A stretch of DNA of 64,000 nucleotides from a virus. Its lineage: Duplodnaviria > Heunggongvirae > Uroviricota > Caudoviricetes. Both the position numbers and the translations under genes were made by a program. Position 1 is the first letter of the stretch; every line of letters begins with the position of its first letter. The DNA lies in IMG/VR virus record IMGVR_UViG_3300042561_002062, positions 85,525 through 149,524 of that record, one strand, 5' to 3'. Of this stretch, positions 5,629 through 53,014 are shown piece by piece. Under the pieces are notes generated by a model. The model searched no databases. It was not told the DNA's origin and was given only the letters and a program-made list of their open reading frames with translations.

Positions 5629-5635
5629 CAATTCG

Positions 5636-5706: not shown

Positions 5707-5714
5707 AAAAATTA

Positions 5715-5786: not shown

Positions 5787-5793
5787 CTTGAAT

Positions 5794-5867: not shown

Positions 5868-5876
5868 CCCATTTAT

Positions 5877-5951: not shown

Positions 5952-5956
5952 CCAAA

Positions 5957-6043
5957 GGAAGATTGGCTGAGAGGTCTATAGCGGCACCCTGCTAAGGTGT
6001 TAGTCGGGAAACTGGCTCATTGGTTCGAATCCAATATCTTCCG
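5957..6043 (+). tRNA. tRNA-Ser (GCT), type II
   Basis: acceptor ggaagat/atcttcc, anticodon arm gcacc-CTGCTAA-ggtgt, long variable arm, T arm attggTTCGAATccaat. Confidence 0.85.
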
Positions 6044-6113
6044 CAAAAAAAAAAACCTGGTTTGTTTTCAAGATTGTCTAGAAACAATTACCTATCTAAA
6101 TTATATACCCAAT

Positions 6114-7333: not shown

Positions 7334-7424
7334 AAGATCTTTTGTAAAAAATGAATAATAAAAATAATAAAAGACACAATTACTATAAATATTAAAAAAT
7401 AGTTTTTAGCTTTTTCTAATCTAG

Positions 7425-7754
7425 TCAATGACAATTGTTAGATTTTATATCAACTTGTGGTCTTTTAAGTTCTACTTCAATTTCCCAAGTTGATTGTTTT
7501 TCTCGCATATATTTGATTATATTAATAGCAAGGTGATCAAACTTTTCATCTTGAACGATGAATGTTGCTTCTCTGACTATTTTTCCACCATCATAAGCTA
7601 TCTCAATAGCTGACATTTTAGCACAGAGCTCTCCTTGATAATACACATCAGTTCCCTTGTGTGAAAACCCATCAGTTGAAACACCAGAAAGTTTGTTGGT
7701 AGAAGAGCAAGAGAAAAGGAATAATAAAAACAGAGATATAAATATTTTCTTCAT
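7425..7754 (-). CDS. small secreted lipoprotein
   Basis: MKKIFISLFLLFLFSCSS signal peptide with lipobox (LFSC); the upstream ATG of the track ORF is less likely. Confidence 0.5.
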   Translation of the reverse strand: MKKIFISLFLLFLFSCSSTNKLSGVSTDGFSHKGTDVYYQGELCAKMSAIEIAYDGGKIVREATFIVQDEKFDHLAINIIKYMREKQSTWEIEVELKRPQVDIKSNNCH

Positions 7755-7850
7755 AACATAAAAATATATGAAAAAAAATATTATTTGTTTAGAAAAATTA
7801 CTCAAACTTCTTTGTAAAAATATACTAAAAATACAAAAATATAAAACTAA

Positions 7851-9047: not shown

Positions 9048-9064
9048 AAAAAAAAAAATAAAAT

Positions 9065-9871
9065 TTGAATATGTATAGAGAAAAAAAAATAAGCCTAAGT
9101 GTAACATCTTGTAAAAGATATGGTCTTTTAGAAAGAGTCCTTAAGGCTTTCAAAGTATTTTGTAAAGATATAGATGTTATAGATAAAGTTCTTTTCTATG
9201 ATGATTCTTCGTCTGAGGAAGATAAAATTAATATGAATAATCTTCTAGAGCAACTCTTTCCAGATAAAGAAAGAATTATTACTCATTTTTATCCTGATTC
9301 TTTCGATCATCGTTTCAGACACGCAGCCATACTCAACGATATGAGGAGTAAATTAACTACTCATGAAATTGACTATATGTTTTTATTAGAAGATGATTTT
9401 TTGTTTATAAATCATTTCTCAATCTCGGAAATGGTAGACCTACTAATAAATCATCAAGAATACGGTCAAGTAAATTTGAGTTTCAGTTGGAAAAATTTTC
9501 CCGAATGGTGTAAACCTAGAGAAATTGGAGATTACTGGGAACTGGTTTATTTCGAAGATAAACCATTATTGGAAAACTTATTTTTAGATGAAGTGGCTGC
9601 TATACAAACACTTAACGGGGTTTGGTATTGGCAAACTTATATAAATTGGCCACACTTCAGTTTACGACCTGGTTTAACATGTGTTAAAAAATTTCTATCT
9701 ATAGAAGATTTTTCTACATCTCATGACACAACTACCACTGGATTCGAATTAGAATTTGCTAAATTATGGTCCAAAAAATATAAATCACTCTGTAGTAAAA
9801 ATGTACATATCATAAATTTAGATCAAAATGGAAGTCAATCTGCCTATCTTTCTAATAACTCTTTGAGATAA
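9065..9871 (+). CDS. hypothetical protein in glycan-modification cluster
   Basis: 268-aa ORF, no confident motif. Confidence 0.4.
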   Translation: MNMYREKKISLSVTSCKRYGLLERVLKAFKVFCKDIDVIDKVLFYDDSSSEEDKINMNNLLEQLFPDKERIITHFYPDSFDHRFRHAAILNDMRSKLTTHEIDYMFLLEDDFLFINHFSISEMVDLLINHQEYGQVNLSFSWKNFPEWCKPREIGDYWELVYFEDKPLLENLFLDEVAAIQTLNGVWYWQTYINWPHFSLRPGLTCVKKFLSIEDFSTSHDTTTTGFELEFAKLWSKKYKSLCSKNVHIINLDQNGSQSAYLSNNSLR

Positions 9872-10003
9872 AAAACTCAAACCACGAGAAAATGAAACTA
9901 TTATTTATAGTGATACTATAATAATAAAGAAAAAAAGATATGAGTAAATATTCTAAATTGAAAAGATTCATACGAAGTAACTAAAATTATTAAATTTTCA
10001 ATA

Positions 10004-11155
10004 ATGGATAAAAAAAACATACCGCTATTTAAAGTATTTATGTCAAAAGATGCGACAAGAAAAGTTGTCGAAGTTCTCGAGAGTGGATATATCGGGCAAG
10101 GTTCTGAAGTAGATAAATTTGAAGATAAATTGAAATCATTTTTCTTACAAGATTATGTAGTTACAACGAATTCAGCCACTTCTGCTATACATTTAGCACT
10201 TCATCTTATAAAAAAAGAAAATAAAAATAGATGGCCTGGTATACGAGTGGATGAGGAAGTTCTTTGTACACCACTAACTTGTACTGCTACAAATTGGCCA
10301 GTTTTGGCTAACGGTTTCAAAATAAAATGGGTTGATATAGATCCCAAAACTTTGAATATAGATCTTGATGATTTAGAGAGGAAAATAACATCATCAACCA
10401 AAGCAATCATGTTAGTTCATTGGGGAGGTTATCCCAATAATTTAGATAGAATAAAAGAAATTCAACAAAAATGTGAAAATCTCTACGGATTTAAACCCTA
10501 TGTTATTGAAGATTGTGCTCACTCTATGGGAAGTAAATTCAGAGGTAAATATTTAGGTAATCATGGTAATATTTCGACCTATAGTCTACAAGCCATAAAA
10601 CACATTACTTCAATAGACGGGGGTTTTATGATTTGTCCAAATAATGAATTATATAAAAGAGCTAAACTATTAAGATGGTATGGTATAGATAGAGAAGGAG
10701 ATAGAAAAGATTTCAGATGTGAAGCAGATGTAGAAGAATGGGGTTTCAAATTCCATATGAATGATGTATCAGCATCTGTCGGAATGTCAAATTTTGATCA
10801 TTTACATGAAATAGTTAGTAAACACAAATCGAACGCACACCACTATGATAATAAATTGAATGATATTCCTGGTTTGACACTTTTAGACAGGCAAGAAGGA
10901 TATGAATCCGCATTTTGGATTTACAGCTTACTTGTTGAGAATCGAGATGATTTCGCAAGATGGATGAAGGAATGTGGTATAGCTACTAGCCAAGTTCATG
11001 AAAGAAATGATAAACACACATGTGTGAAAGACTACAGAACATTTCTGCCTTCATTAGATAAAACAATAAATAAAGTCACTTCTCTACCAGTTGGGTGGTG
11101 GGTAACAAATGAGGATCGTGAATATATCGTAGAATGTATTAAAAAAGGATGGTAA
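10004..11155 (+). CDS. DegT/DnrJ/EryC1/StrS-family sugar aminotransferase (PLP-dependent)
   Basis: 383 aa; DCAHSMGS, STYSLQAIKHITSIDGGFM (PLP-Lys region), overall layout of nucleotide-sugar aminotransferases. Confidence 0.8.
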   Translation: MDKKNIPLFKVFMSKDATRKVVEVLESGYIGQGSEVDKFEDKLKSFFLQDYVVTTNSATSAIHLALHLIKKENKNRWPGIRVDEEVLCTPLTCTATNWPVLANGFKIKWVDIDPKTLNIDLDDLERKITSSTKAIMLVHWGGYPNNLDRIKEIQQKCENLYGFKPYVIEDCAHSMGSKFRGKYLGNHGNISTYSLQAIKHITSIDGGFMICPNNELYKRAKLLRWYGIDREGDRKDFRCEADVEEWGFKFHMNDVSASVGMSNFDHLHEIVSKHKSNAHHYDNKLNDIPGLTLLDRQEGYESAFWIYSLLVENRDDFARWMKECGIATSQVHERNDKHTCVKDYRTFLPSLDKTINKVTSLPVGWWVTNEDREYIVECIKKGW

Positions 11156-35382: not shown

Positions 35383-36264
35383 ATGAAAACATTCAACCTG
35401 GCCCATCCCGAAAAATCCGAGGTCAAATTCAAAATAAATCGATTTCCTGACGGACAGCAATCTGTTACTATTGAGGACGCTCCTGCGTTTCTTCAAGGAC
35501 ATGATATCAGAATCAAAAGCCGAATGAATAACTTCAAAGATTTGGAATTGATTATTTGTGCAAACCAAGCGCTACGTAACCTTTTTGTATCATCAGTTAG
35601 TCTTTACCTTCCATACTTCATGGGAGCTCGTTCTGACCGCCGATTCACCGAAGGTGATGTTCACTACCTTAAACAAGTCATTTGTCCTATCATCAATTCT
35701 CAGAACTTCAATAGCATCACTGTATTGGATCCTCACTCTGATGTATTAGAAGCCTGCTTGGATAACTACCAAAAGATCGACAATAGCAGAATTGTAGAGC
35801 AAGCTCTTACTGATATTGACAACAGTGATGGTGCTCAGAACAGAATTGTATTGGTCTCTCCTGATGCTGGGGCTTACAAAAAAATATTTGATGTAGCACA
35901 AAAGTTTGGTATCAATAGGATCATCACCGCCACAAAAGTTCGCGATATTAAGACTGGTAAAATTCTTCACACAGAAATCCCTACTCTAGACCAAGCCGAA
36001 GATCTGAAGTACGTAATTGTTGATGACATCTGTGACGGTGGCCGAACCTTCATTGAACTTGCTAAAGCTATTCACGGTAGCCGTCCTACTGCTAAGGTAT
36101 ACCTGGTAGTTACACATGGTATCTTTAGTAATGGATTTCTAGAACTTAGTAGAGAACTAGAAAAGATCTACTCCTCCAATAGCTATTCTGATCGTAATGA
36201 TATTGAACACGATAGTCAATACACAGTTGCCAAAGAATTCCTCAAACAATTTAACGTATTCTAA
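35383..36264 (+). CDS. divergent PRPP-synthetase homolog (candidate ADP-ribose pyrophosphokinase, Adps-like)
   Basis: PYFMGARSDRRF (Prs PYFGYARQDR-like), VIVDDICDGGRTF PRPP loop, VVTHGIFS; much more divergent than the canonical prs at 22912. Confidence 0.55.
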   Translation: MKTFNLAHPEKSEVKFKINRFPDGQQSVTIEDAPAFLQGHDIRIKSRMNNFKDLELIICANQALRNLFVSSVSLYLPYFMGARSDRRFTEGDVHYLKQVICPIINSQNFNSITVLDPHSDVLEACLDNYQKIDNSRIVEQALTDIDNSDGAQNRIVLVSPDAGAYKKIFDVAQKFGINRIITATKVRDIKTGKILHTEIPTLDQAEDLKYVIVDDICDGGRTFIELAKAIHGSRPTAKVYLVVTHGIFSNGFLELSRELEKIYSSNSYSDRNDIEHDSQYTVAKEFLKQFNVF

Positions 36265-36266
36265 TC

Positions 36267-36674
36267 ATGAAAATTGAAAATTTTGACATAGACCGCATCA
36301 TTGGTATAACCATCTATGATGAAAGAAGGACATCTCACAAGTGGTTGCCTCGCAAAGAAAAGAAATGGTTCTTTGGACTATTCTCAAGAGGATGGCATTC
36401 CGAAGGCTTTTACTCAAACGGATGCTATCGAGAATGCTATGAAAGTGGTTGTTGGGATGCTACACCAAGCAACCAGGAGTGGCTCATCCAGAATGGTTAC
36501 CTTGTAAAATCTGATAACACAGTATGGTCCAGACCTTATGTAACGGTGTATATGGAATCTAAATATGAGGTTAGTAAATCTTTCGATACTCTCGAACAGG
36601 CGATTGAATGGACAGAAGACTTAAAAATGACCACTAACAAAACATTTGAAATTGTAAAACATACGAAATCTTAA
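36267..36674 (+). CDS. hypothetical protein
   Basis: 135-aa ORF. Confidence 0.4.
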   Translation: MKIENFDIDRIIGITIYDERRTSHKWLPRKEKKWFFGLFSRGWHSEGFYSNGCYRECYESGCWDATPSNQEWLIQNGYLVKSDNTVWSRPYVTVYMESKYEVSKSFDTLEQAIEWTEDLKMTTNKTFEIVKHTKS

Positions 36675-36738
36675 TCCACTACACAAACAACCAATTACCA
36701 AATCAATTCAACTAACTAAAACCCAAAAAAAAAAAACC

Positions 36739-37146
36739 ATGTTCATCATTCCATTTCTTGTTATTTGTGTTCATTATGTAGCTGATTTTATTTTTCAAGC
36801 AGAAAAATGGGCAACTACCAAAAGTAAAAGTAACTTATCTCTATTATCACATGTGAGTGTATATTCTACTCTGTGGATATTGCCATCTTATGCTATTCTA
36901 TCAAACCTAAGACCCGGTGAAAGTAGAGAGTGGTATCTGTATAGTACTATTTTATTTTTTATCCTAACTTTCCTTTCCCATTTCATAACGGATTATATCA
37001 CTAGTAGAATTGTTTCAGAGAAGTTTTCTAGCGGAAAATACGGCAGTCCGATTCCAAATTTTGGAGCATTCTCAATAATTGGTCTAGATCAAGTTCTACA
37101 CTACGCACAACTTTTTACTACTCTTTATCTACTAACTGATAAATAA
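36739..37146 (+). CDS. membrane protein
   Basis: 4 TM segments. Confidence 0.45.
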   Translation: MFIIPFLVICVHYVADFIFQAEKWATTKSKSNLSLLSHVSVYSTLWILPSYAILSNLRPGESREWYLYSTILFFILTFLSHFITDYITSRIVSEKFSSGKYGSPIPNFGAFSIIGLDQVLHYAQLFTTLYLLTDK

Positions 37147-37174
37147 TCTTTGATCAATCTATATAATTGAAAAT

Positions 37175-37522
37175 ATGAAAAATCTAATTTTTATTTCTTC
37201 ACCATATACACACGAGGATCCTGTGGTAGTAGAAAAAAACTTTGTCCAAGTAGCAAAATTATCTGCACATTTAACTTCAAAGGGGTACGTCACCTTCTCT
37301 CCGATCGTCTATGGTCATACGCTATTGAGCTTAAGAAAGATGGATGCTGACTGGGAAACTTGGAAATCTTTCTGCTTGACTTTTCTCAAAAAATCTGAGG
37401 AGATCTGGGTCTACAAAATGGATGGGTGGAACCGATCAAGAGGTGTGGCCGAAGAAATAGAATTTGCTATCAAAAATAACATCACAATTAAATACTTAGA
37501 CAATGAACAATTTGATTTCTAA
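37175..37522 (+). CDS. nucleoside 2-deoxyribosyltransferase-fold protein (DUF4406/DUF1937-like)
   Basis: LIFISSPYTHEDP...YVTFSPIVYGH pattern of this Rossmann-like family. Confidence 0.45.
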   Translation: MKNLIFISSPYTHEDPVVVEKNFVQVAKLSAHLTSKGYVTFSPIVYGHTLLSLRKMDADWETWKSFCLTFLKKSEEIWVYKMDGWNRSRGVAEEIEFAIKNNITIKYLDNEQFDF

Positions 37523-38039
37523 AAAATTATCTTACATAGATGGCGACTTAATCAAACTTGCTAAAGAAGGCTTGTTCGATGTGATTGTTCATGGATGTAA
37601 CTGTCACTCAGTAATGGGTGCTGGAATTGCTCCACAAATGGCACAGGCGTTCGGATGTGATCGTTTTGGGATGGAAATGTGGGGGTCCGACATTAATAAA
37701 TTAGGAAACATTGACTACCAAACAGTAGTTCTAGGTGAGCACAGAATTTGGTCACTTAACGATCTAAAGAATAATCGTAACGAACCAGAGCTAACTGTGG
37801 TCAACGCATACACACAATTTAACTATGGTAGAAATCACCCAGACGGAGATGCTCATCCACTTAGCTATGAGGCACTTACTCTATGTATGAAAAAGATTAA
37901 CATGGTGTTCTGTGAAAAGCACATAGGTATGCCCAAGATTGGTTCTGGTCTTGCTGGTGGTGATTGGGATCGTATAGAACATATTATTAGCGTAGAACTT
38001 AGAGATTGTCAAGTCACTATCGTAAATTATAGACCATGA
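37503..38039 (+). CDS. macro domain protein (ADP-ribose binding/processing)
   Basis: DVIVHGCNCHSVMGAGIAPQM ... IGMPKIGSGLAGGDW aligns with macro motifs (VVNAAN..GGGV ... FPAISTGVYG). Confidence 0.6.
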   Translation: MNNLISKKLSYIDGDLIKLAKEGLFDVIVHGCNCHSVMGAGIAPQMAQAFGCDRFGMEMWGSDINKLGNIDYQTVVLGEHRIWSLNDLKNNRNEPELTVVNAYTQFNYGRNHPDGDAHPLSYEALTLCMKKINMVFCEKHIGMPKIGSGLAGGDWDRIEHIISVELRDCQVTIVNYRP

Positions 38040-38887
38040 AAAGATTCAAGATAGGTGGTGTCCCAGAACACTTTAATCTTCCCTGGAGAATGGCCATCGA
38101 AAGAGGTGAGTTCGACCAGATGAGAACAAACATTCATTGGTCAGATATGCCGGGAGGAACTGGACAAATGATCAAAGGTCTTAGGGCGGGATCAATTGAC
38201 ATCGCGGTTTTACTTACCGAAGGAATCACCAAAGCTATCTTGGAAGGTTTACCAGCAGAGATTGTTTCGGTATACGTTCAAAGCCCTCTTACTTGGGGAA
38301 TACATTCACCAGTTGGTTCGGTAAAAGAACTACGGGACTTAGAAGATTCTACATTCGCCATATCCCGAGAAGGATCGGGTTCTCATTTGATGTCGTATGT
38401 ATTAGCTGATAGAGAAGGATGGAAAGCACCGACTGATTTTGAGGTGGTTGGAGATGTTTACGGAGGTCTTTGGGCTTTAGAAAACAACAGGGCAAAAGCG
38501 TTTCTCTGGGAGCGATTTACCACCCAACCTTTCGTGGACTTGGGAAAATGTCAAAGAGTAGGTGAGATCAAAACGCCTTGGCCTAGTTTTGTGGTAGCAG
38601 CTAGATCAGAAGTACTGGAAAGAGAAGCAGATACCGTAAAAATAGTAGTTAGAAAAGTTCTAGAAACAGCACAGAAAGTAAAGAAATGGAGTATTTCTAC
38701 AAATTCACATCCTTCGTGGTCAGCTCAAGAAATCTCTTGGAGATACGGTCTGAAGATAGATCAAGCACAAATGTGGTTAGACCAAACTTTTTGGGCGGAT
38801 AAAGTAGAAGGCTTATCAGAGACTCAGTTGGTTGCCGTTAATGAAACATTAAAAAAACTAAATCTTGTTAATCATGTCACTATCTGA
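38036..38887 (+). CDS. NMT1/THI5-like periplasmic-binding-protein-fold protein (cytoplasmic; MqnA/THI5-type)
   Basis: MKRFKIGGVPEHFNLPW..., no signal peptide. Confidence 0.45.
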   Translation: MKRFKIGGVPEHFNLPWRMAIERGEFDQMRTNIHWSDMPGGTGQMIKGLRAGSIDIAVLLTEGITKAILEGLPAEIVSVYVQSPLTWGIHSPVGSVKELRDLEDSTFAISREGSGSHLMSYVLADREGWKAPTDFEVVGDVYGGLWALENNRAKAFLWERFTTQPFVDLGKCQRVGEIKTPWPSFVVAARSEVLEREADTVKIVVRKVLETAQKVKKWSISTNSHPSWSAQEISWRYGLKIDQAQMWLDQTFWADKVEGLSETQLVAVNETLKKLNLVNHVTI

Positions 38888-39083
38888 TTGTACTGAATGC
38901 TGGCAAACTCCTTGTGAGTGCGGACATGAATTCAAAAACAAAAGTCGAGACTACAAAGAACTGATGACCAAATCTATTAATGGTTTCACAATCAAAGATG
39001 TATTTTTATGGCTTGGAAAAAATGATTATCTTTCAGATGATCCCGAAACTTTGTTTGAAGAATTTATAAAAAGTCAAAAATGA
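38865..39083 (+). CDS. small Cys-containing protein
   Basis: 72-aa ORF (CTECWQTPCECGHEF). Confidence 0.35.
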   Translation: MLIMSLSDCTECWQTPCECGHEFKNKSRDYKELMTKSINGFTIKDVFLWLGKNDYLSDDPETLFEEFIKSQK

Positions 39084-39087
39084 AAAA

Positions 39088-39441
39088 ATGATCACAGAAA
39101 AATTAATAATAGTCTATTATCTCAATATGAGTAGTATGCCAAGGCAAAGGGGACAAGAAATGTTAGCTGAGTTAAGTGCAAATCTCTATCGTTCAATTGA
39201 AGAAGCACACCATATAGTTCTTCCTATAAAGGACGGGGACGGGATCACTCGAGTTGAGTGTATCAATCCCAAACTTATTACTCAAGAAGAGTATGAATCA
39301 GTCGAAGTTTTTTTGAAAAAAGCAGAAGATGCTCTTTCCAATTTTCTAGAAAAAACCAAACCTAATTTGAAAAAAGTAGAAAAAACCAAACCTACCTTCT
39401 TTGAAAAATTAACCGGAGCATTTAAAAATAGAAAATCTTAA
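39088..39441 (+). CDS. small protein, paralog of 27542..27817
   Basis: ITRVECINPKLITQEEYE block. Confidence 0.45.
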   Translation: MITEKLIIVYYLNMSSMPRQRGQEMLAELSANLYRSIEEAHHIVLPIKDGDGITRVECINPKLITQEEYESVEVFLKKAEDALSNFLEKTKPNLKKVEKTKPTFFEKLTGAFKNRKS

Positions 39442-39446
39442 AAAAA

Positions 39447-39923
39447 ATGAAAATAACTAATAAGTACGTATTTTTCTGGGATGGAATTTATTCACAATGG
39501 CACAAAGCCTTAATGGAAATTGATGGAAGCATCTATAACTCCTGTGAACAATACATGATGTATCAAAAAGCGCTTGTTTTTGGTGATGTTGAAATTGCAG
39601 ATAAAATTATGGAAGAAAGCAACCCACGAGAACAAAAGAAGTTTGGTCGTATGATTAAAAACTTTGACAAAGCTATCTGGGATTCTTGTTGTCTGGGTAT
39701 AGTATACCGCGGGAACCTAGCTAAATTCACACAAAATTCCGAACTAGGAGAGCAACTTTTAGAGACCGGCGATCGAATCTTAGTAGAAGCTTCCCCTTTG
39801 GATAAGATTTGGGGAATAGGAATGGGAGAAGAAGATCCAGGTATAGAAGATCCTTCAAATTGGAAAGGTCTAAACCTTCTAGGACAAGCTATTACTTTAG
39901 TAAAGCAGCAAATCAAAACGTAA
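39447..39923 (+). CDS. NADAR-domain protein (YbiA-like; DUF1768)
   Basis: FFWDGIYSQWH...CEQYMMYQKALVFGD...REQKKFGRMIKNFD..W...KFTQN..L...LLETGDRILVEASP.DKIWGIG: full-length NADAR signature. Confidence 0.8.
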   Translation: MKITNKYVFFWDGIYSQWHKALMEIDGSIYNSCEQYMMYQKALVFGDVEIADKIMEESNPREQKKFGRMIKNFDKAIWDSCCLGIVYRGNLAKFTQNSELGEQLLETGDRILVEASPLDKIWGIGMGEEDPGIEDPSNWKGLNLLGQAITLVKQQIKT

Positions 39924-39926
39924 AAA

Positions 39927-40418
39927 ATGAAAATCATCAAACCAACAACTCCAGACCAAGAGATCGAAAAAAATTCAATCACTGTATTTTTGGCCGGATC
40001 AATCGAAATGGGAGCTGCCGAAGACTGGCAGACAGAAATTCCAAAAGTTTTTGAAAATCAACCGGTAACATTTTTCAATCCACGAAGGGATGAATGGGAT
40101 TCTTCTTGGAAACAAGAACAGTCAAATCCACAGTTCAATCATCAAGTCAATTGGGAGATGAATAAGTTAGAGGAATGCGACCTAATATTCATGTATTTTT
40201 CACCAGAGACGAAAAGTCCAATCTCTCTATTGGAACTTGGAATTCACGCCAAAGATTACAAAACGATCGTGTGCTGTCCTGATGGTTTCTGGAGAAAAGG
40301 TAACGTAGAGATTACCTGCACTCGTCACCACATACCTATGTTCAATACGATGAAAGAAGCCGTCGGCGCTTTAAGAACGGCGATATCGGCGAAAAAAAGA
40401 ATTACCCATTTTTTCTAA
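39927..40418 (+). CDS. nucleoside 2-deoxyribosyltransferase-like protein
   Basis: VFLAGSIEMG...DLIFMYFSPE..SLLELG pattern (PF05014-like). Confidence 0.5.
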   Translation: MKIIKPTTPDQEIEKNSITVFLAGSIEMGAAEDWQTEIPKVFENQPVTFFNPRRDEWDSSWKQEQSNPQFNHQVNWEMNKLEECDLIFMYFSPETKSPISLLELGIHAKDYKTIVCCPDGFWRKGNVEITCTRHHIPMFNTMKEAVGALRTAISAKKRITHFF

Positions 40419-40471
40419 AACTATTTTTATCTGGATATTTTTTCTTAATTTTACAAAAAACAAAAACTAAA

Positions 40472-41950
40472 ATGAACCCACTACTTCTTACCGATGGATA
40501 TAAGACAGGCCATCACCAACAATACCCAAGGGGCACAACACTTGTCTATTCTAACTTTACCCCACGATCGAACAAATACGGCCCGAAAGGTTGTGACAAG
40601 GTCGTTTCATTTGGTCAACAAATGGTCATGCAACAACTACACGAAGTTTTTCAAAGAGATTTCTTCTCTAGACCAAAAGATCAAGTATGTGGTGAGATGA
40701 AACAAGAACTCTCGATGTATCTAGGTATAGACTACGATGTTAGCCACTTTGAAGCACTGCACGATCTAGGCTATTTGCCTATCGCAGTTCAGGCGCTCTC
40801 TGAAGGAACGCTGGTTCCTATCAAGGTTCCAGTGTTGACGATCTACAACACTCACCCAGATTTCTACTGGCTGACCAACTACCTGGAGACTATTTTGTCT
40901 AATTTGATGTGGAAACCTATGACAAGCGCAACCATCGCCCACCAGTACAGAAAAGTTCTGACCAAGTGGATGGAAAAGACCGACAAGGAAAACGCCTGGT
41001 TTATTGATTGGCAAGGGCACGACTTCTCTATGAGAGGTATGGACTCTGCCGAAGCGGTAATCTCTTCTGGCTTGGGTCACCTTACATCTTTCTCTGGAAC
41101 CGACTCGCTGCCTGCTATTCACGGAGCCCGCAAGTATTACGGTGCTGAAGGTTTCGTCGCCGGTTCGGTGCCTGCAACCGAGCACTCGGTAATGTGTGCT
41201 GGAGGCAAGGAAGATGAAGAATCCACCTTCCGCCGCTTGCTAGAGACTTACCCCAAAGGAATTCTTTCGGTTGTATCTGATACTTGGGATCTCTGGAGAG
41301 TATGTACTCAACACGTGGTGGCTCTGAAAGAAGAGATCTTAGCCCGTGATGGTAAGTTGGTTATCCGTCCTGACTCAGGCGACCCAGCTGATATTCTTTG
41401 TGGATTAAATACTCGCTCTAAATTGGTAAGTTTGGTAGATGAAGATCATCCCTCATATAAAGGAGTTATTGAATTACTTTGGGATGTATTCGGAGGAACT
41501 GTAAACGAACAAGGTTACAAAGTTCTTGACCCACATATCGGAGCAATCTATGGTGATTCTATCACAATCGAAAGAGCCGACGAAATCTGCAAACGTTTGG
41601 AAGCCAAAGGATTCGCATCAACCAACGTGGTACTAGGTATCGGTTCATTCACTTACCAGTTCAATACTCGTGATACATTTGGTTTCGCTATGAAGGCAAC
41701 CTACTGCGAGATTAACGGTCAAGGCCAAGAGATATTCAAAGATCCTATCACGGACGATGGTACCAAAAAATCTGCAACCGGCTTGCTCTGCGTGACCAGA
41801 GACGAGTACAGCGGAGAGTACATGCTGACGGACCGAGTTGATTGGACAACCGCTCAATCAGGTGATCTCAAAACAATTTACCGTGACGGATCGTTTGAGA
41901 ACACAACTACTCTATCCCAAATACGGGAAAACTTAAAGAAAGACCTATAA
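40472..41950 (+). CDS. nadV: nicotinamide phosphoribosyltransferase family protein (NAMPT/NadV, or the homologous Namat)
   Basis: 492 aa; MNPLLLTDGYKTGHHQQYP, GHDFSMRG, GTDS, RPDSGDP: NAMPT family hallmarks. Confidence 0.8.
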   Translation: MNPLLLTDGYKTGHHQQYPRGTTLVYSNFTPRSNKYGPKGCDKVVSFGQQMVMQQLHEVFQRDFFSRPKDQVCGEMKQELSMYLGIDYDVSHFEALHDLGYLPIAVQALSEGTLVPIKVPVLTIYNTHPDFYWLTNYLETILSNLMWKPMTSATIAHQYRKVLTKWMEKTDKENAWFIDWQGHDFSMRGMDSAEAVISSGLGHLTSFSGTDSLPAIHGARKYYGAEGFVAGSVPATEHSVMCAGGKEDEESTFRRLLETYPKGILSVVSDTWDLWRVCTQHVVALKEEILARDGKLVIRPDSGDPADILCGLNTRSKLVSLVDEDHPSYKGVIELLWDVFGGTVNEQGYKVLDPHIGAIYGDSITIERADEICKRLEAKGFASTNVVLGIGSFTYQFNTRDTFGFAMKATYCEINGQGQEIFKDPITDDGTKKSATGLLCVTRDEYSGEYMLTDRVDWTTAQSGDLKTIYRDGSFENTTTLSQIRENLKKDL

Positions 41951-42852
41951 TGCCAAAGGAACCAATATCAATCAAAGGAGGGCTGCTAGAAACAGTAACC
42001 CACCGTCAAGTGACTAGACCAGATGTAAGGTTAAATTATTTCGAAAACAAAAAAATACCTACAATATCGGAAAATCCATCTCTATTTGATAGAATATCTT
42101 TTGATATCAAGGAGATGAGTTTTTCGGTTGAAAATCACTTAGTGACTACCAATATTCCCAAAAAAACAATAACTGATGTTATTCCGTCTGATTATTTAGC
42201 AAAAGCTACTATTTCGGCCCTATATCAAAAGATGTTAATTGGAACAGAAAAAAGATTGTTTGAAAAATATTCTAAAGTTGCATGGGATAATTATCAAAAG
42301 GGAGTTTCTAAGTGGCAGAAATTCATTCTGTCTCTACTGAAAATGAAAAAATATACCTATGTTGGCAACTCACCCTCTTCACTTCGAGAAAGGATCTACA
42401 TATTATCGAATAAAATATTTGCCTCGACCAACACATCACCGGGTAATTTTGTTATACTGCCACATGGGTTACTTACACTACTAGAAGAAAATCCAAGTCT
42501 TGAATACATAAATCCACAATCAGCAGGTCGTATTCTTGATTTACCAAACTCCAGGTTTGTAAAAAGGGGACGAGTAGGTAATATTTCTGTATACCACGAC
42601 ACTTACGCTAAATGGGATTCACATGATGTGATAGTCGGAAAAACTAGTGAAGGTCACGGCCACCCCGGTATTTATTTTTGTGAGTATTCAAATGAATATC
42701 AAAGTACAGAAGATCACTTATCTCTTGGAATGAAAGTTGGATTAATATCTAAAAACGTATTAGCGGATGTTGGTGACTTGTCAGGTATGTATATAGCAGA
42801 CAAAATTTCAACTAAAGTTAAACCTTGGTGGATGAAAATTCTAGGAATCTAA
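41950..42852 (+). CDS. hypothetical protein
   Basis: 300-aa ORF; ATG overlaps the upstream stop. Confidence 0.4.
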   Translation: MPKEPISIKGGLLETVTHRQVTRPDVRLNYFENKKIPTISENPSLFDRISFDIKEMSFSVENHLVTTNIPKKTITDVIPSDYLAKATISALYQKMLIGTEKRLFEKYSKVAWDNYQKGVSKWQKFILSLLKMKKYTYVGNSPSSLRERIYILSNKIFASTNTSPGNFVILPHGLLTLLEENPSLEYINPQSAGRILDLPNSRFVKRGRVGNISVYHDTYAKWDSHDVIVGKTSEGHGHPGIYFCEYSNEYQSTEDHLSLGMKVGLISKNVLADVGDLSGMYIADKISTKVKPWWMKILGI

Positions 42853-44160: not shown

Positions 44161-44781
44161 ATGTCAGGAATGAAGGTATTATTTTTAGATCATGATGGTG
44201 TAATTTGTCTATATAAAAACTGGGCAAGTCGAACCAAAAAAAGAGCTCAGTGGAGAAGACTCTTTCCTACAGCCTATGCTAATGACGAAAGAGTTCCTGT
44301 CAAGTGGAGATTTGATGATTTTGATTCCGGTGCAATTAAAGTTCTAAATCAGATAATAGAAGAAACCGGATGCGAGATTGTTGTAAGTAGTGATTGGAGA
44401 AGAAATTCTAGTCTTGAAGAGATGGGAGAATACTACCAGTTACATGGCATATTAAAAAGACCCATAGATTTTACTCCAGTTTTTGACCCGAATTGGAGAA
44501 GAGATGGTTTTTTGCCAGGATCGAAAGAATTTCCATGGTCAAGAACTTATGAACTAGAACAAGAAAGATATTTCGAGATCTTGAAATGGTTATCTCTTCA
44601 TCCAGAGGTTAGTAACTATTGTGTAGTAGATGATCTTGATATGGGAAATACTTGGAAAGATTACTCTGGTGAAGGTAAGCGCGATTGGGGATTTCAAAAC
44701 TACGTAAGAACCCCTCTTTCAACCGAGGGAATAAAACAGCTAGGAATAGCACAAAAAATAATAAACATTCTAAATAATTAA
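44161..44781 (+). CDS. HAD-like phosphatase (candidate polynucleotide 3'-phosphatase)
   Basis: VLFLDHDGVI (DxDxV motif I); directly upstream of an RNA ligase. Confidence 0.5.
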   Translation: MSGMKVLFLDHDGVICLYKNWASRTKKRAQWRRLFPTAYANDERVPVKWRFDDFDSGAIKVLNQIIEETGCEIVVSSDWRRNSSLEEMGEYYQLHGILKRPIDFTPVFDPNWRRDGFLPGSKEFPWSRTYELEQERYFEILKWLSLHPEVSNYCVVDDLDMGNTWKDYSGEGKRDWGFQNYVRTPLSTEGIKQLGIAQKIINILNN

Positions 44782-44784
44782 ATT

Positions 44785-45807
44785 ATGGAAAGAAAACTAG
44801 CAACTTTAAGAAGAATAAAAAAACTGATGCCTATTGAAGGAGCAGATGCCATAGAACTAGCTCTTGTGGATGGATGGCAAGTTGTAGTAGCAAAAAATGT
44901 TGGATATCGTCAGGGAGATCTAGTTATCTACTGCGAGATAGATTCTTTTTTACCGATTAGAGAAGAGTTTGAATTTTTACGTAGAACATCTTATAAAAAA
45001 ATGGCAGATAGGGAAGGATTTCTTCTTAAAACTATTCGGCTACGCGGTCAAATTTCTCAAGGTTTGATACTTCCTATTACCGTTCTAGGTGATGATACAT
45101 CTGGATTATACGAAGGTATGGATGTTACTGAAAAATTAGGTATCGTTAAATACGAAGCACCAATACCTGCATCTTTACAAGGAAAGGTTAAGGGTAATTT
45201 TCCATCATTTATTCCTAAAACAGACGAAGAAAGAGTTCAGAATCTAGAAAAAGAATACAATGAACTAAAATTCAGTTCTAAACATCAACTTTACGTAACT
45301 GAAAAATTAGATGGTTCTTCTTATACGGTCTATCTTAATCGTGGTGAATTTGGTGTTTGCTCACGAAATCTTGAACTATTAGAAACAGAGGATAACACCT
45401 ATTGGAAAGTAACCAGAGATCTTAAAATAGAAGAAAAGTTAAGATCACTTGGTAGAAATATATCTCTACAAGGTGAGCTTATTGGTGAAGGTATCCAAGG
45501 AAATCCATACAAACTTCGTGGGCAGACAGTAAAGTTTTTCACCGGATATGATATAGATAGAGGGCAGCGTATTGGTATTCGTGATTTTTTAAATTTACTT
45601 AAAAATCTTGGGCTTGAAAGTGTTCCGGTTCTTCAAATGGGTGATTTTACCCTACCGGAAACTGTATCAGATATGCTAAAATGGGCAGAAGGTCCGTCGG
45701 TTCTTAATCCGAACTTTCCAAGAGAAGGTGTAGTAGTCCGTAGTCTTGATGGAACTGTCTCTTTCAAAGCTATATCAAATCAATTTCTTCTAAAAACAGG
45801 TGGTTAA
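44785..45807 (+). CDS. ATP-dependent RNA ligase (KxDG)
   Basis: VTEKLDGSSY motif I, 340 aa. Confidence 0.65.
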   Translation: MERKLATLRRIKKLMPIEGADAIELALVDGWQVVVAKNVGYRQGDLVIYCEIDSFLPIREEFEFLRRTSYKKMADREGFLLKTIRLRGQISQGLILPITVLGDDTSGLYEGMDVTEKLGIVKYEAPIPASLQGKVKGNFPSFIPKTDEERVQNLEKEYNELKFSSKHQLYVTEKLDGSSYTVYLNRGEFGVCSRNLELLETEDNTYWKVTRDLKIEEKLRSLGRNISLQGELIGEGIQGNPYKLRGQTVKFFTGYDIDRGQRIGIRDFLNLLKNLGLESVPVLQMGDFTLPETVSDMLKWAEGPSVLNPNFPREGVVVRSLDGTVSFKAISNQFLLKTGG

Positions 45808-45819
45808 ACAAAAAAAAAT

Positions 45820-46464
45820 ATGAAAAACATTTATCTGGATGATCAGAGAACACCCCATAATCATCACATGGATTGGGTTGTTGTTAGAAATTACGAACAA
45901 TTCATCGCAGCGGTCGATGCGATCGGACTAGAAAACATTGGACTGATGTCTCTTGATCACGATCTAGGACCATCAGCTATTAGGGAATGGGATCGTAACG
46001 TTCTTAAAAATTATCGTATAGACTACGAAAATATTACCGAAAAAACAGGACTTGATGTAGCAAAATGGATAGTCGATCAGTGGAAATCAGGAAGTCCTGT
46101 GTGTAGAGTTATGATACACTCTTCGAACTGCATTGGTTCAGCAAATATGATGGGTATAATTAATAATTATAAGCACCTTAATAGATTACCACAAGATTGT
46201 AAAAGGTGGGTAGTACCTTTCACACACGAAGATTATCCTGGAGCCACCCCACCTCAAATTTTAGCTGAGCAGCTCCTTAGAAAACTCACGATGTACAAGG
46301 ACTACCCGATAGATTATCTAACTGGACAAGTAGCTAAAACATCTACTTTAAATAATAGTACAGAAGTTATTTTGATGCTGGAAAGTTTCATAGATCTTTT
46401 GGGTGACTACAGCAAAGATGACCTAAAAAAAGTAGTAGATCATATTAAAACTTTGGATATTTGA
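45820..46464 (+). CDS. CPPR-like domain protein (paralog of 19688..20137)
   Basis: IYLDDQRTP..WVVVRNYEQF..SLDHDLGP shared with paralog. Confidence 0.55.
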   Translation: MKNIYLDDQRTPHNHHMDWVVVRNYEQFIAAVDAIGLENIGLMSLDHDLGPSAIREWDRNVLKNYRIDYENITEKTGLDVAKWIVDQWKSGSPVCRVMIHSSNCIGSANMMGIINNYKHLNRLPQDCKRWVVPFTHEDYPGATPPQILAEQLLRKLTMYKDYPIDYLTGQVAKTSTLNNSTEVILMLESFIDLLGDYSKDDLKKVVDHIKTLDI

Positions 46465-48479: not shown

Positions 48480-49265
48480 ATGAAAACAGGAATTTATAAA
48501 ATAATATGTAAAAAAAATAATAAAATTTATATTGGTTCTTCAAATAATATAGAAAGAAGATGGAACACACATATGAATACCTTAGACAAAAAAACACACA
48601 GAAATCCTCATTTACAAAATGCATGGGAATTATATGGAAAAGATGAATTTGTTTTTGAAATAATTGAAATTTGTGAAAGTTATCAGTTAAAAGACAGAGA
48701 ACAATTTTGGATGGATATGACAGGATGTTATAATAGAGAAATAGGTTTTAATAACTCACACAATTCTAATTCTTCTTTTGGGTATAAACATACAGAAGAC
48801 GCAAAAAACAGAATGAGTGAATTAAAAAAAGGATCCAAACAAACAAAAGAAGTTATCGAAAAAAGAATAGAAAAAATGAAAGGTAAAAAGCATACTGAAG
48901 AAACGATTGAAAAAATAAGAACTGGTAAAATTGGCGAAAAGAACCCTATGTTTGGAAAAAAAGAAGATGAAGGACATAAGAAAAAAAGAATGATAAATCT
49001 TTTAAATACAAAAAAATGGAATAGTGGTTTAACTAAAAAAGATGACCCCAGAATAGAAAAATTGGGGTATTGGAAAGGAAAAACAACAAAAAACGCAAAA
49101 AAATGTAAACTTATTGATTTGTTAACAAATGAAATTTGGGAGGAGGATTCAATAAATAAATTATCAAATATTTCTCCACTTAGTAATTCTTCGCTAAGAA
49201 GGTTAATTAAAAACAAAGCCAGTGAAATAATTTCTAAAAAATATAAAATTATAGTAAATGAGTAA
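48480..49265 (+). CDS. GIY-YIG homing endonuclease with NUMOD3-like repeats (I-TevI-like)
   Basis: GIYKIICKKNNKIYIGSS..R..H (GIY-YIG), repeated G..HTEE.K.K motifs. Confidence 0.8.
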   Translation: MKTGIYKIICKKNNKIYIGSSNNIERRWNTHMNTLDKKTHRNPHLQNAWELYGKDEFVFEIIEICESYQLKDREQFWMDMTGCYNREIGFNNSHNSNSSFGYKHTEDAKNRMSELKKGSKQTKEVIEKRIEKMKGKKHTEETIEKIRTGKIGEKNPMFGKKEDEGHKKKRMINLLNTKKWNSGLTKKDDPRIEKLGYWKGKTTKNAKKCKLIDLLTNEIWEEDSINKLSNISPLSNSSLRRLIKNKASEIISKKYKIIVNE

Positions 49266-49905
49266 TAAAGTAGAACTACTATCACATTTCGGAAATGATT
49301 TAATGATAGTTAATGTTGCAAGAGTTAGTTATGGTAAAGAGGTATCAACACTTGAAGAAAAAGATGGTAAATTAATAAATTATCTTGTTAAACACAAACA
49401 CACATCTCCATTCAGACATCCTCAACTTCAGTTCAGGATAACTTGTCCTATTTATGTTGAAAGACAATTATTCAAACACCAAGTCGGATTAAGCGCCAAT
49501 TCAATCAGTGGTAGATATGTTGATTTTAGTGACACTTATTCAACAATACATGAATGGAGGAAACAATCAAAATCATCAAAACAAGGTAGTGAAGGGGTAA
49601 TCGAGGATCAATTTACAGCATCGGAAATTGAAACCAGTATCATAGACTATTGTAAAACTGCGTACCAAAGATTAATCGAACTTGGTGTGTCCAAAGAACA
49701 AGCAAGAACAATTTTACCACTTAATTTAAATACAAGTTTCATTTGGACTGGTAGTTTATTAGCTTTTATCCATCTTTTTAATTTAAGAATCAAACCTGAC
49801 GCTCAACAAGAAACAAGACAAGTAGCTCAAATGATGTTAGATGAAGTAAAAAAGTTGGAAGGTAATCCATTTCAATTAACTATTGAAGCATTTGAATTAT
49901 CTTGA
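49258..49905 (+). CDS. thyX: flavin-dependent thymidylate synthase ThyX
   Basis: RHPQLQFR, ERQLFKHQ, SANSISGRY (ThyX RHR..S....SxR motif). Confidence 0.8.
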   Translation: MSNKVELLSHFGNDLMIVNVARVSYGKEVSTLEEKDGKLINYLVKHKHTSPFRHPQLQFRITCPIYVERQLFKHQVGLSANSISGRYVDFSDTYSTIHEWRKQSKSSKQGSEGVIEDQFTASEIETSIIDYCKTAYQRLIELGVSKEQARTILPLNLNTSFIWTGSLLAFIHLFNLRIKPDAQQETRQVAQMMLDEVKKLEGNPFQLTIEAFELS

Positions 49906-50467: not shown

Positions 50468-51049
50468 TTGAAAAAAAATATGAGCACAACATCACACGCA
50501 AAATTTGAATTAGAATTAGCAGGTTTCTTTGACGAGGACTCTGATTATGGAGGAGCAATCGGAGGAGCAGTTATGGAACTAATGGAAGTATTTGAAAAAC
50601 AAGGACACTCAGGTGGTTCAGCCCCGATTGTAGCATCGCTATTCCATAAATTGGCTAACTACGAACCACTGGGGCCTATTACAGGTAAAGATGAAGAGTG
50701 GGGAGATATTAGAAATATATCAGATGATCCTTGGTATCAAAACAAAAGAGAAACGGGATTGTTCAAACATAAAGATGGTAGGGTTACATATAATAGCGCT
50801 ATTATCAAAAGATGTCCTAGTGGAACAACTTGGTCTGGACCTATTTATATGACCCGAGAAGATGCTATCAACAATTCAAACCGATTTCATAGTTCTTTGG
50901 AAATTAAAGGATTTCCATTTACACCTAAAACATTTTACATTGATTTTTTAGAGGAGGAAATTAAAAAAGATGATTGGATTATGTGGGTGAAAGACTCAAA
51001 ACAATTAGATGAGGTGTGGGAGTATTACAAAAAACCTGATTTTTTATGA
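50468..51049 (+). CDS. hypothetical protein
   Basis: 193 aa. Confidence 0.4.
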   Translation: MKKNMSTTSHAKFELELAGFFDEDSDYGGAIGGAVMELMEVFEKQGHSGGSAPIVASLFHKLANYEPLGPITGKDEEWGDIRNISDDPWYQNKRETGLFKHKDGRVTYNSAIIKRCPSGTTWSGPIYMTREDAINNSNRFHSSLEIKGFPFTPKTFYIDFLEEEIKKDDWIMWVKDSKQLDEVWEYYKKPDFL

Positions 51050-52132: not shown

Positions 52133-53014
52133 GTGAAATCTTTCAACCTTCTTAAACCAACACCACTTGTTAAACTAAATTTTAGTAGAAAAACTATCTG
52201 GGGAAAAGCAGAATATCTCAATCCTTCTGGTTCGGTAAAAGATAGACCAATTAAAAATATCTTAGACAGAGCTCAAGAGGCAGGATTACTCAGAGTGGGT
52301 GATACCATTATTGAAGCTACCAGCGGAAACGCTGGTATTTCTTTTGCTATGATGGCCGCAGAAAGAGGAATGCGTTGTGTGATTGTGATGCCAAGTAACA
52401 TGAGCGAAGAAAGAAAAAAAATGCTCCGAGCTTACGGAGCAGAGCTTATCGAGGTCGATCCGGGAGATTTTGACGGAGCTATCGCCTTACGTGATAAACT
52501 TTCTAGAGAAAACGGATGGTTTAATGGAAATCAATTTCACTCCTCTTGGAATATAGAAGCTCATCAGATAGGAACAGGACCAGAGATAATCTACCAATCT
52601 CGTATGAATTGTTTTATACCTTCATGTTTTGTTTCTGGAACAGGAACAGGCGGAACTATAATGGGCGCTGGAGTTCTACTCAAAGAATACTACACCGGTA
52701 TGAAACTCGTAGCGGTTGAACCAAAAGAAAGTGCAGTAATGAGTGGTGGCACGCCTGGTCTTCACGGTATTCAAGGTATAGGTGATGGGTCTAAATTTTT
52801 AGTTGATCTTCAGGTTTTGGATAGTATAATAACTATCTCAACTGATGAAGCTAAAGAATTTACTCTTGAACTTTCAAGAAAGTTTGGTGTTTTTGTAGGT
52901 TTTTCAGCGGCGGCTAATGTTTTAGCTACATTAAGATTTTTAGAAGAAAATGATCTAGATAACGGAGTTACAATACTCTGTGATAGAGGAGATAGGTATT
53001 TAAGTATGCTCTAA
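52133..53014 (+). CDS. cysK: cysteine synthase / PLP-dependent beta-substitution enzyme (CysK/CysM family)
   Basis: NPSGSVKDR, TSGNAGIS (PLP-binding), GTGGT motifs. Confidence 0.8.
   Translation: MKSFNLLKPTPLVKLNFSRKTIWGKAEYLNPSGSVKDRPIKNILDRAQEAGLLRVGDTIIEATSGNAGISFAMMAAERGMRCVIVMPSNMSEERKKMLRAYGAELIEVDPGDFDGAIALRDKLSRENGWFNGNQFHSSWNIEAHQIGTGPEIIYQSRMNCFIPSCFVSGTGTGGTIMGAGVLLKEYYTGMKLVAVEPKESAVMSGGTPGLHGIQGIGDGSKFLVDLQVLDSIITISTDEAKEFTLELSRKFGVFVGFSAAANVLATLRFLEENDLDNGVTILCDRGDRYLSML

Follow-up and report, generated by a model that had tools for sequence, protein, structure and literature searches.

Depletion of nicotinamide adenine dinucleotide (NAD+) is among the commonest anti-phage strategies of bacteria, and phages carrying the NAD+ reconstitution pathway NARP1 are known to add accessory enzymes to it that act on non-canonical NAD+ breakdown products. 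One of these is Adpp, a Poa1p-like macro protein encoded in the operon of 15% of NARP1 phages, which dephosphorylates ADP-ribose (ADPR)-1''-phosphate, the product of RES-domain NAD+ phosphorylases (aRES), and the arrangement has been named NARP1-AP (Osterman et al., bioRxiv 10.64898/2026.01.28.702374). Another is RyDEP, a RyR-domain O-glycosidase acting on 2'/3' cyclic ADPR (cADPR), whose gene sits inside the NARP1 operon in phage DyoEdafos (PMC13232231). In bacteria, NrtR, a repressor released by ADPR, controls prs-nadV operons, the logic of which was then unexplained (Rodionov et al. 2008, PMC2330246). Here we analyse a gene island at positions 35383-41950 of a 64,000-nucleotide stretch (the window) of IMG/VR record IMGVR_UViG_3300042561_002062 (positions 85,525 to 149,524), a virus of the Caudoviricetes. 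With a probability of roughly 0.7, the island is a NARP1-AP operon for NAD+ reconstitution that is unusually expanded, with a NADAR protein and a nucleoside deoxyribosyltransferase (NDT)-like protein of family PF15891, here NDT2, functionally belonging to the module. NARP1 has been described before, as has its extension by a macro protein; what appears to be new is that the PF15891 protein and, less consistently, a YbiA-type NADAR are conserved together with the two NARP1 enzymes, Adps (ADPR pyrophosphate synthetase) and Namat (nicotinamide ADPR transferase), in uncultivated phages and in NrtR operons of Bacteroidota.

The window comes from the genome of a large virulent phage and contains a tRNA array as well as virion, lysis and RNA-ligase genes. 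The island comprises 11 open reading frames (ORFs), all on the plus strand and closely packed; in several cases start and stop codons overlap. A terminator scan of the block yielded no credible internal terminator, and promoter and terminator scans of the island gave signals at or below shuffle expectation. The seven ORFs of an initial annotation of this DNA were all recovered in place and on the plus strand, and its domain calls held up, with refinements, in profile searches against Pfam, PHROG and NCBIfam; the block holds four more ORFs, the DUF3307 gene and three small ones (Table 1). Among 50,697 phage records, Megablast found nothing matching the island, which therefore has no close sequenced relative; a Namat identical to that of the window was seen on metagenome contigs.

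Adps, Namat and the macro protein

The Adps candidate is a diverged relative of phosphoribosyl pyrophosphate (PRPP) synthetase, Prs. It matches Pribosyltran in Pfam (33.5 bits) and phrog_619 ('ribose-phosphate pyrophosphokinase', 1e-69), and it falls below every curated NCBIfam Prs cutoff (99 bits versus 113 for TIGR01251, the broadest model). The identity is 36-39% to the Adps proteins of ICP1 and Bas62 compared with 21% to E. coli Prs. It has 293 residues (315 in Prs), its alignment stops before the C-terminal helices of E. coli Prs, and the C-terminal alpha11-alpha12 regulatory and filament module of Prs is absent. A structural study of ICP1 Adps identified residues for ADPR binding, for catalysis (K185) and for a remodelled ATP donor site (PMC13586617), and these were compared using the ICP1 sequence from GenBank. 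All acceptor and catalytic residues are kept (window F21, R83, H118, D161, K185, D214, D215 and D218; ICP1 F18, R87, H121, D161, K185, D212, D213 and D216); they are also conserved in Prs and hence do not discriminate. At the donor site, window F88, I194, I216, C217 and F223 agree with ICP1 (F92, I194, I214, C215 and F221), whereas the E. coli Prs residues are V, S, M, I and L. Glu takes the place of ICP1 F223, as in Bas62, and the PP loop, VDDICDGGRTF, is also that of Bas62. By these features the protein is an Adps and not an ordinary Prs, as the initial annotation had suspected, and it is predicted to form ADPR pyrophosphate (ADPR-PP). The closest sequenced relative of the window Adps (44% identity) is found in a cyanophage, Leptolyngbya phage Lbo-JY46 (L002, positions 6817-11026), where a Namat-type protein (GSFTYQYNTRD motif; PncB in the annotation) is encoded two hypothetical genes away from Adps, with genes for an SNO glutamine amidotransferase and an ATP-grasp protein coming after them.

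Namat is defined by a 'selectivity clamp' that consists of the SCH motif GSX-phi-X-phi-X-phi-TRD (X being aromatic), a lengthened SCL loop in which position three is Arg, Lys or Tyr, and a stacking residue; the SPbetaL1 Namat crystal structures (9W5X/9W5W) come from the same work (PMC12774641). The window protein (NAPRTase 2e-41, NAMPT_N, phrog_448 3e-198) is 54% identical to SPbetaL1 Namat and scores 548 bits against these structures versus about 230 bits against human, rat and bacterial (Xcc) Nampt. Its SCH motif is an exact match, G391-S-F-T-Y-Q-F-N-T-R-D401, whereas three NadV outgroups (KVP40-species, Margaery and Bajun proteins) have GGGLLQ..RDT or GGGIAMADMDRDT at this position. The SCL, S33-N34-K35-Y36, aligns with T-S-R40 of SPbetaL1 and matches the published Lys-Tyr variant, with a predicted stacking, in a loop that is longer than that of NadV. 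The catalytic core is invariant in the alignment (window F185, R188, D211, H238, R299 and D301; SPbetaL1 F189, R192, D215, the catalytic His, R306 and D308). In a neighbour-joining tree the split between eight Namat-type proteins, including that of the window, and the three NadVs was recovered in 100 of 100 bootstraps, computed as split support; the protein thus groups with Namat, the placement for which a phylogeny had been proposed as a check. It is a Namat rather than an ordinary NadV, with a predicted preference for ADPR-PP.

The Bajun NadV gene adjoins an NMNAT/Nudix gene (NMNAT, nicotinamide mononucleotide (NMN) adenylyltransferase), and with its product as the single tblastn query the 64-kb window gave no NMNAT match. 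Because of the Namat clamp and tree, the Adps donor site and the lack of an NMNAT match, we assign the pair to NARP1 and not to a KVP40-like NadV salvage, as had been anticipated. NARP2 (Nampt plus Nmnat) was ruled out on the Namat-type protein and the same missing match, and NARP3 (PnuC/NadR) since no such genes are present in the island.

The macro protein passes the Pfam Macro cutoff narrowly (24 bits, cutoff 22) and matches phrog_335 'phosphatase' (3e-42) and the yeast Poa1p structures 6LFQ-6LFU (6LFU, E 5e-6). With the validated Adpp of Vibrio phage Gary it has 31% identity (E 3e-14) and the motifs H-x-C-N-C, M-G-x-G-I-A-P and G-L-A-G-G-D-W-D in common, and its gene is placed between those of Adps and Namat. 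Given the resemblance to Poa1p and the homology to a validated Adpp, the core of the island corresponds to the published NARP1-AP, and its chemistry is likely that of a phosphatase, not de-ADP-ribosylation of protein or DNA. The initial annotation had taken it for an enzyme that removes ADPR from protein or DNA adducts, which is probably not the case; its association with NARP1 is not new, being already published as NARP1-AP. No similarity to an aRad1-like aRES inhibitor was found among the small ORFs of the island.

NDT2 and NADAR in viral and bacterial loci

NDT2 matches Nuc_deoxyri_tr2 (PF15891; 3e-36, 124 bits). The family alignment shows a Gly-rich loop, FLAGS, after strand 1, an invariant Glu103 in SPISLLELG, and invariant, family-specific Arg/Trp-rich motifs (NPRR, QV(N)WE and F(W)RxGN). 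Glu103 occupies what we take to be the nucleophile position of the DrHyd superfamily (NDT/DNPH1 enzymes) and is a candidate nucleophile. The fold indicates a predicted activity of cleavage or exchange at a nucleotide N-glycosidic bond. A classical nucleoside 2-deoxyribosyltransferase was rejected (PF05014, 18.3 versus a cutoff of 28.8), the fold and the E-x-G nucleophile still being common to both. PF15891 has no characterised member, and the literature searched holds no statement of its function. Metagenomes contain at least 8,000 NDT2 homologues, the top 120 being 62-96% identical, compared with 46 of the 50,697 sequenced phage records, mostly of jumbo phages; the link to NARP1 is not evident in cultured phages, of which four of the 46 records were inspected, and may therefore have gone unreported in surveys of sequenced isolates. 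In the survey by Iyer et al. viral DrHyd-type domains are reported only as ADP-ribosyl cyclases. The literature searched has no link between a deoxyribosyltransferase-like protein and NARP1, Namat or NAD+ reconstitution, in agreement with the initial annotation, which had stated that the deoxyribosyltransferase-fold and THI5-fold components belong to no described version.

The co-occurrence of the island genes was determined in 80 IMG/VR loci with a Namat 71-90% identical to that of the window, using all island proteins as queries; 50 of them had at least 3 kb on both sides of Namat and were used for a flank test (Table 1). NDT2 lies almost always directly beside Namat, both genes having the same orientation; it precedes Namat in 21 loci and follows it in 34. 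As a reverse test the search was started from NDT2 homologues (54-80% identity), and Namat was less than 3 kb away in 55 of 61 adequately flanked viral loci (90%). De-replication left 81 viral loci, which display more than 20 gene orders; NDT2 is present in 59 (a number that is inflated, since the second set was picked through NDT2), Macro in 28, NADAR in 13 and all five core genes in 10.

The NADAR protein is full-length and matches PF08719 (6e-49, 167 bits), TIGR02464 (150 bits versus a cutoff of 74) and the structures 8BAU (3e-13) and 2B3W (YbiA). Its last strand carries a Glu ('LVEAS', aligned with 'LVEHT' of YbiA). De Souza and Aravind, who defined NADAR in 2012, are said to have named it for its neighbourhood links to NAD/ADPR genes, so that some of the neighbourhoods may have been mentioned before. 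A Glu in the last strand, instead of Asp or His, distinguishes the YbiA subfamily, and every NADAR subtype tested so far hydrolyses ADP-ribosyl-guanine in DNA in vitro (PMC11125620). NADAR genes beside NadV/NadM in some phages were noted by Iyer et al., who proposed soluble N-glycosidic ADPR derivatives as substrates, while the literature searched names NADAR together with NARP1 only in passing.

Scanning one genome per prokaryotic species with an NDT2 alignment yielded 80 bacterial loci, with both Adps and Namat in 16 and NADAR in 14, most of these being Bacteroidota by title. The Bacteroidota with such loci include Chitinophaga, Flavobacterium, Fluviicola and other Bacteroidia (operons at L176, 47-7960; L208, 2628-7258; L200, 1148-9583). 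The Chitinophaga operon reads NrtR - Adps - NADAR - KptA/Tpt1 - 2-oxoglutarate (2OG) oxygenase - metallophosphoesterase - NDT2 - Namat; that of Flavobacterium has an extra Macro protein and an ADP-ribosylglycohydrolase (ARH), and L209 a PARG-like protein, judged by sequence motif only. NDT2 and Namat genes overlap by 4-11 nucleotides in the Bacteroidota operons, the signatures are GSYTYEYVTRD for Namat and VDDICDGGRTF for Adps, and the Namat proteins are about 51-54% identical to that of the window. These operons look like an ADPR-induced pathway recycling ADPR derivatives to NAD+, and no description of such a Bacteroidota operon was found in the literature searched. Phage and bacterial clusters have Adps, Namat, NDT2, NADAR and some kind of macro protein in common. 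Of KptA, metallophosphoesterase, 2OG oxygenase, ARH, PARG-like and NrtR genes, the window and the 151 viral loci contain a single metallophosphoesterase only.

A third context is provided by gp225 of Tunturiibacter phage Tunturi_5 (L250, 3977-7765; annotated in the record as a MutT/NUDIX hydrolase), a polyvalent protein of 1,262 residues in which an N-terminal NDT2 domain is followed by an ART-PolyVal ADP-ribosyltransferase (ART) domain; the gene adjoins that of the portal. Three independent contexts, viz. phage NARP1 loci, Bacteroidota operons and the NDT2-ART fusion, therefore tie PF15891 to NAD/ADPR chemistry. Moreover, since subsets of the gene set recur in approximately 80 de-replicated viral loci and 14 bacterial loci, the co-localisation in the island is not due to chance. 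The expanded module put forward in the initial annotation stands as far as the genes for the macro protein, NADAR and the second deoxyribosyltransferase-like protein are concerned, since these are found with NARP1 in other loci too. No evidence places the THI5-fold gene, absent from all 151 viral loci, in the module, and the DUF1937 and DUF3307 genes are only sporadic. Likewise, of the two deoxyribosyltransferase-fold proteins, NDT2 is a conserved partner and the DUF1937 protein is not.

Proposed mechanism and rival explanations

For Adps, Namat and Adpp the proposed steps follow experimentally characterised homologues, and for NADAR and NDT2 membership follows from comparative genomics. A host NADase of the TIR, SIR2 or SEFIR type would split NAD+ into ADPR and nicotinamide; Adps would convert ADPR and ATP to ADPR-PP, which Namat would join with nicotinamide to give NAD+. 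The macro protein would return the aRES product ADPR-1''-phosphate to ADPR and so keep the pathway workable. The YbiA-family NADAR most likely frees ADPR from N-glycosidic adducts such as those of DarT1-type guanine ADP-ribosylation, and NDT2, with its DNPH1/MilB/NDT-type fold, most likely cleaves the N-glycosidic bond of a NAD-derived nucleotide or exchanges its base. Because NDT2 is coupled to Namat rather than to Adps, our data suggest that it supplies or recovers a Namat substrate, which could be nicotinamide, released from NMN, or ADPR, released from one of its N-linked derivatives.

Accessory 'feeder' enzymes in NARP1 are plausible given the precedents of Adpp and RyDEP. A tentative extension, which we hold to be more doubtful than probable, is that NDT2 and the YbiA-type NADAR are dedicated NARP1 feeders that cleave N-glycosidic ADPR or nicotinamide conjugates and return ADPR and nicotinamide, with histidine-ADPR, N-linked cADPR (Thoeris variants), ADP-ribosyl-guanine (DarT1-type) and NMN as candidate substrates. 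If true, the five-enzyme island would serve as a broad-spectrum hub, removing immune signals or lesions and remaking NAD+ from them, and the same enzymes would serve an ADPR-induced, NrtR-controlled NAD recycling in Bacteroidota.

Several points weigh against the expanded module. All enzymatic roles in the island are inferred from homology or context, and the only close solved relative of NDT2, PDB 4MCJ from Parabacteroides, is an uncharacterised structural-genomics protein; as an NMN nucleosidase, NDT2 would create a PRPP-wasting cycle with the side activity of Namat. In the window, 4.2 kb and nine genes separate Adps from Namat, which is among the largest gaps, most related loci having the two less than 1 kb apart. 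The validated NARP1 systems of SPbetaL1, ICP1, Bas62 and Staphylococcus and Listeria phages show that two genes suffice, and the viral loci share kinship, so that their counts are not independent events. NDT2 is not exclusive to NARP1: 62 of the 80 bacterial loci are orphans with variable neighbours (recurrent neighbours of these orphan genes were looked for and none found), and in four cultured jumbo phages among the 46 records the NDT2 homologues (40-50% identity) are not beside NARP1. NADAR accompanies NARP1 in 11 of 14 bacterial loci and rarely in viral ones (13 of 81); it is found in 721 phage records, mostly away from NARP1, and in the model NARP1 phages it is not near the NARP1 operon.

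The two-gene systems, the common ancestry of the viral loci, the unlinked distant NDT2 homologues and the scattered NADAR genes, together with a Ca3427-like gene unique to the lineage and sporadic DUF1937 and DUF3307 genes, would also suit a functional unit of Adps, Namat and Adpp only, NADAR and NDT2 being auxiliary or moron genes in an early-gene hotspot and adjacent by ancestry. We consider this unlikely: the adjacency of NDT2 and Namat persists through more than 20 gene orders and on either side of Namat, the reverse test reaches 90%, four of the genes are co-operonic under NrtR in Bacteroidota with far more distant Namat proteins and overlapping NDT2/Namat frames, and the fusion with an ART domain independently ties the family to NAD chemistry. 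Less probable again is that the island is mainly a housekeeping recycler of NAD used in RNA repair and not a counter-defence system. Here NAD-dependent removal of a 2'-phosphate would yield ADPR-1'',2''-cyclic phosphate and nicotinamide, from which a cyclic phosphodiesterase, the macro phosphatase, Adps and Namat would restore NAD+. KptA/Tpt1 and metallophosphoesterase genes between NADAR and NDT2 in the bacterial operons, the native role of Poa1p in tRNA splicing, the decay of ADPR-PP itself to ADPR-cyclic phosphate, and a HAD_SAK_2 - RNA ligase - cREC cluster 2.2 kb downstream of Namat (in related viral loci a HAD gene is near Namat in 24 of 80 and an RNA ligase gene in 17 of 80) are in line with such a route. 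The window and the 151 related viral loci have no KptA/Tpt1 homologue, however, anti-defence phenotypes have been demonstrated for both NARP1 and Adpp, and a Tad3 gene is nearby; the recycling and counter-defence roles can also coexist. Ordinary nicotinamide salvage, by which a true PRPP synthetase and a NadV/Nampt would make NMN in a KVP40- or NARP2-like way and a host or phage gene would complete NAD+, is very improbable. The generic labels of the two proteins (ribose-phosphate pyrophosphokinase; nicotinate/nicotinamide phosphoribosyltransferase, NF006629, 566 bits) agree with it, and Namat enzymes keep some PRPP-dependent NMN synthesis in vitro (PMC12774641). Against this stand the clamp motif and tree split of Namat, the sub-cutoff Prs-like protein with its Adps-type donor site and the undetected NMNAT, and an Adpp partner is sensible only for an ADPR-based route. 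We thus retain an expanded NARP1-AP operon. It draws attention to another accessory enzyme, NDT2, whose tight coupling to Namat is seen across a large clade of phages known from uncultivated material as well as in bacterial operons under ADPR control. Once its substrate is identified, NDT2 would provide an extra step of NAD+ reconstitution and a function for PF15891 and PDB 4MCJ; the substrate could also reveal the defence or metabolite that is answered, and connect phage counter-defence with cellular ADPR recycling.

Neighbouring genes and comparison with known systems

Table 1. Features of the window, with co-occurrence of the island genes in viral loci carrying Namat.
Feature	Position	Strand	Match or remark	Viral loci	Within 3 kb of Namat
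Adps, predicted ADPR pyrophosphate synthetase (NARP1 step 1), diverged Prs-like	35383..36264	+	phrog_619	70/80	41/50
135-residue protein	36267..36674	+	no Pfam, PHROG or NCBIfam match
DUF3307 membrane protein, sporadic passenger	36739..37146	+	PF11750 8e-11; phrog_2470 'membrane protein'	6/80	4/50
DUF1937 / small NDT-fold protein, sporadic	37175..37522	+	PF09152 8e-15; phrog_355 1e-19	4/80	3/50
Adpp-type macro protein, putative Poa1p-like ADPR-1''-phosphate phosphatase	37503..38039	+	phrog_335; homology to Gary Adpp	27/80	14/50
Cytoplasmic PBP2/Ca3427-like protein, lineage-specific insertion	38036..38887	+	PF22384 1e-16, 61 bits	0/80	0/50
72-residue ORF	38865..39083	+	no Pfam match
117-residue protein	39088..39441	+	no Pfam, PHROG or NCBIfam match
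NADAR domain protein, YbiA subfamily, putative N-glycosidase of ADP-ribosyl-guanine hydrolase type	39447..39923	+	PF08719	7/80	5/50
NDT2, predicted nucleotide N-glycosidase or transglycosylase	39927..40418	+	PF15891 (Nuc_deoxyri_tr2); conserved Namat partner	55/80	32/50
Namat, predicted nicotinamide ADPR transferase (NARP1 step 2)	40472..41950	+	NAMPT_N + NAPRTase
300-residue ORF	41950-42852		weak Gp23 major-capsid-like match (PF07068, 2.7e-7)
HAD_SAK_2 phosphatase	44161-44781		RNA-repair cluster (44161-46464)
RNA ligase with PHA02142 OB-fold	44785-45807		RNA-repair cluster
cREC cyclic-phosphate-processing domain protein	45820-46464		RNA-repair cluster
GIY-YIG/NUMOD3 homing endonuclease and ThyX (Thy1) thymidylate synthase genes	48480-49905		overlapping
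Tad3 homologue (type I Thoeris inhibitor)	50468-51049		PF25185 5e-33, 114 bits (cutoff 27)
PLP-dependent PALP-family enzyme	52133-53014		5e-65
23-tRNA array	1894-6044
Aminotransferase-like protein	10004-11155		phrog_3139 1e-40
tRNA-Leu(TAA)	17448-17532	-
487-residue protein	18114-19577	-	DUF7788 + DUF2828; PHROG 850 'RNA-binding protein' 8e-144

The DUF3307, DUF1937 and Ca3427-like genes and the three small ORFs are passengers, either sporadic or confined to the lineage, and nothing indicates that they belong to the module. Homologues of the 135-residue protein are found only in the NARP1 loci L016, L042 and L059, and the 117-residue protein has a single homologue, in L059; the 72-residue ORF is called as a gene of 69 residues in near-identical contigs. 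The DUF1937 protein, which also matches the hypothetical protein 1T1J in PDB (1e-9), had been described as DUF4406-like; DUF4406 is a weaker match (7.5e-5) than DUF1937, while the small NDT fold stands. The protein at 38036..38887 had been given an NMT1/THI5 fold. NMT1 scores 20.3 against a cutoff of 20.5, and PBP2_Ca3427_like fits best, as does PDB 2X7P, Candida Ca3427 (9e-28); a THI5/NMT1 hydroxymethylpyrimidine phosphate synthase was rejected on the Pfam gathering score. This gene was also absent from the 50,697 sequenced phage records and is kept only in near-identical contigs of the same phage.

Downstream of Namat, the start of the 300-residue ORF overlaps the Namat stop codon, and weak homologues (24-29% identity) follow Namat in seven related loci. 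With respect to RNA repair, a Staphylococcus phage has an RNA ligase gene at a distance of about 2 kb from NARP1, and in Bas62 one adjoins NARP1 on the opposite strand. Tad3, 8.5 kb downstream of Namat, is a second NAD-related counter-defence gene, and together with the RNA-repair cluster it fits an early-gene region countering NAD-linked immunity and RNA damage. The 487-residue protein may have another RNA-related function. The tRNA array covers most amino acids, including three tRNA-Met and one tRNA-Ile (anticodon TAT), and accounts for a local GC peak of 0.42-0.47; tRNA-Leu(TAA) lies apart from it. The homing endonuclease gene is directly upstream of ThyX, and the PLP (pyridoxal phosphate)-dependent and aminotransferase-like proteins are two products of auxiliary metabolic-type genes.

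Compared with canonical NARP1 (SPbetaL1, Bas63 and ICP1; Osterman et al. 2024; PMC12774641; PMC13586617), the island has an identical clamp logic and the same PP loop (that of Bas62); those systems are two-gene operons without macro, NADAR or NDT2 genes within 4-7 kb, whereas the window has all three. The NARP1-AP operon of Vibrio phage Gary encodes these three enzyme families in genes of one orientation, as does the window, but there the genes are adjacent, and the window adds NADAR and the PF15891 protein, which are conserved partners in its clade, as well as the lineage-specific genes. RyDEP of DyoEdafos follows the same principle of a hydrolase in a NARP1 operon that turns a NAD-derived immune molecule into ADPR for Adps and Namat (PMC13232231); the candidates in the window, NADAR and the PF15891 protein, instead have folds of the N-glycosidase type, and a RyR domain was not detected. 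As to the enzymes of the DrHyd superfamily (DNPH1/RCL, MilB/BcmB and the nucleoside 2-deoxyribosyltransferases), NDT2 has the same fold type with invariant motifs of its own. Finally, in the NrtR prs-nadV operons (PMC2330246) and bacterial NARP1 (PMC12774641) the genes called 'prs' and 'nadV' are Adps-like and Namat-like, respectively, and are transcribed together under the control of an ADPR-sensing repressor. The bacterial operons further carry KptA/Tpt1, 2OG oxygenase and metallophosphoesterase genes and sometimes Macro, ARH or PARG-like genes; they are chromosomal, not viral, and without a Poa1p-type macro, while their Bacteroidota versions, like the phage island, include both NADAR and NDT2.

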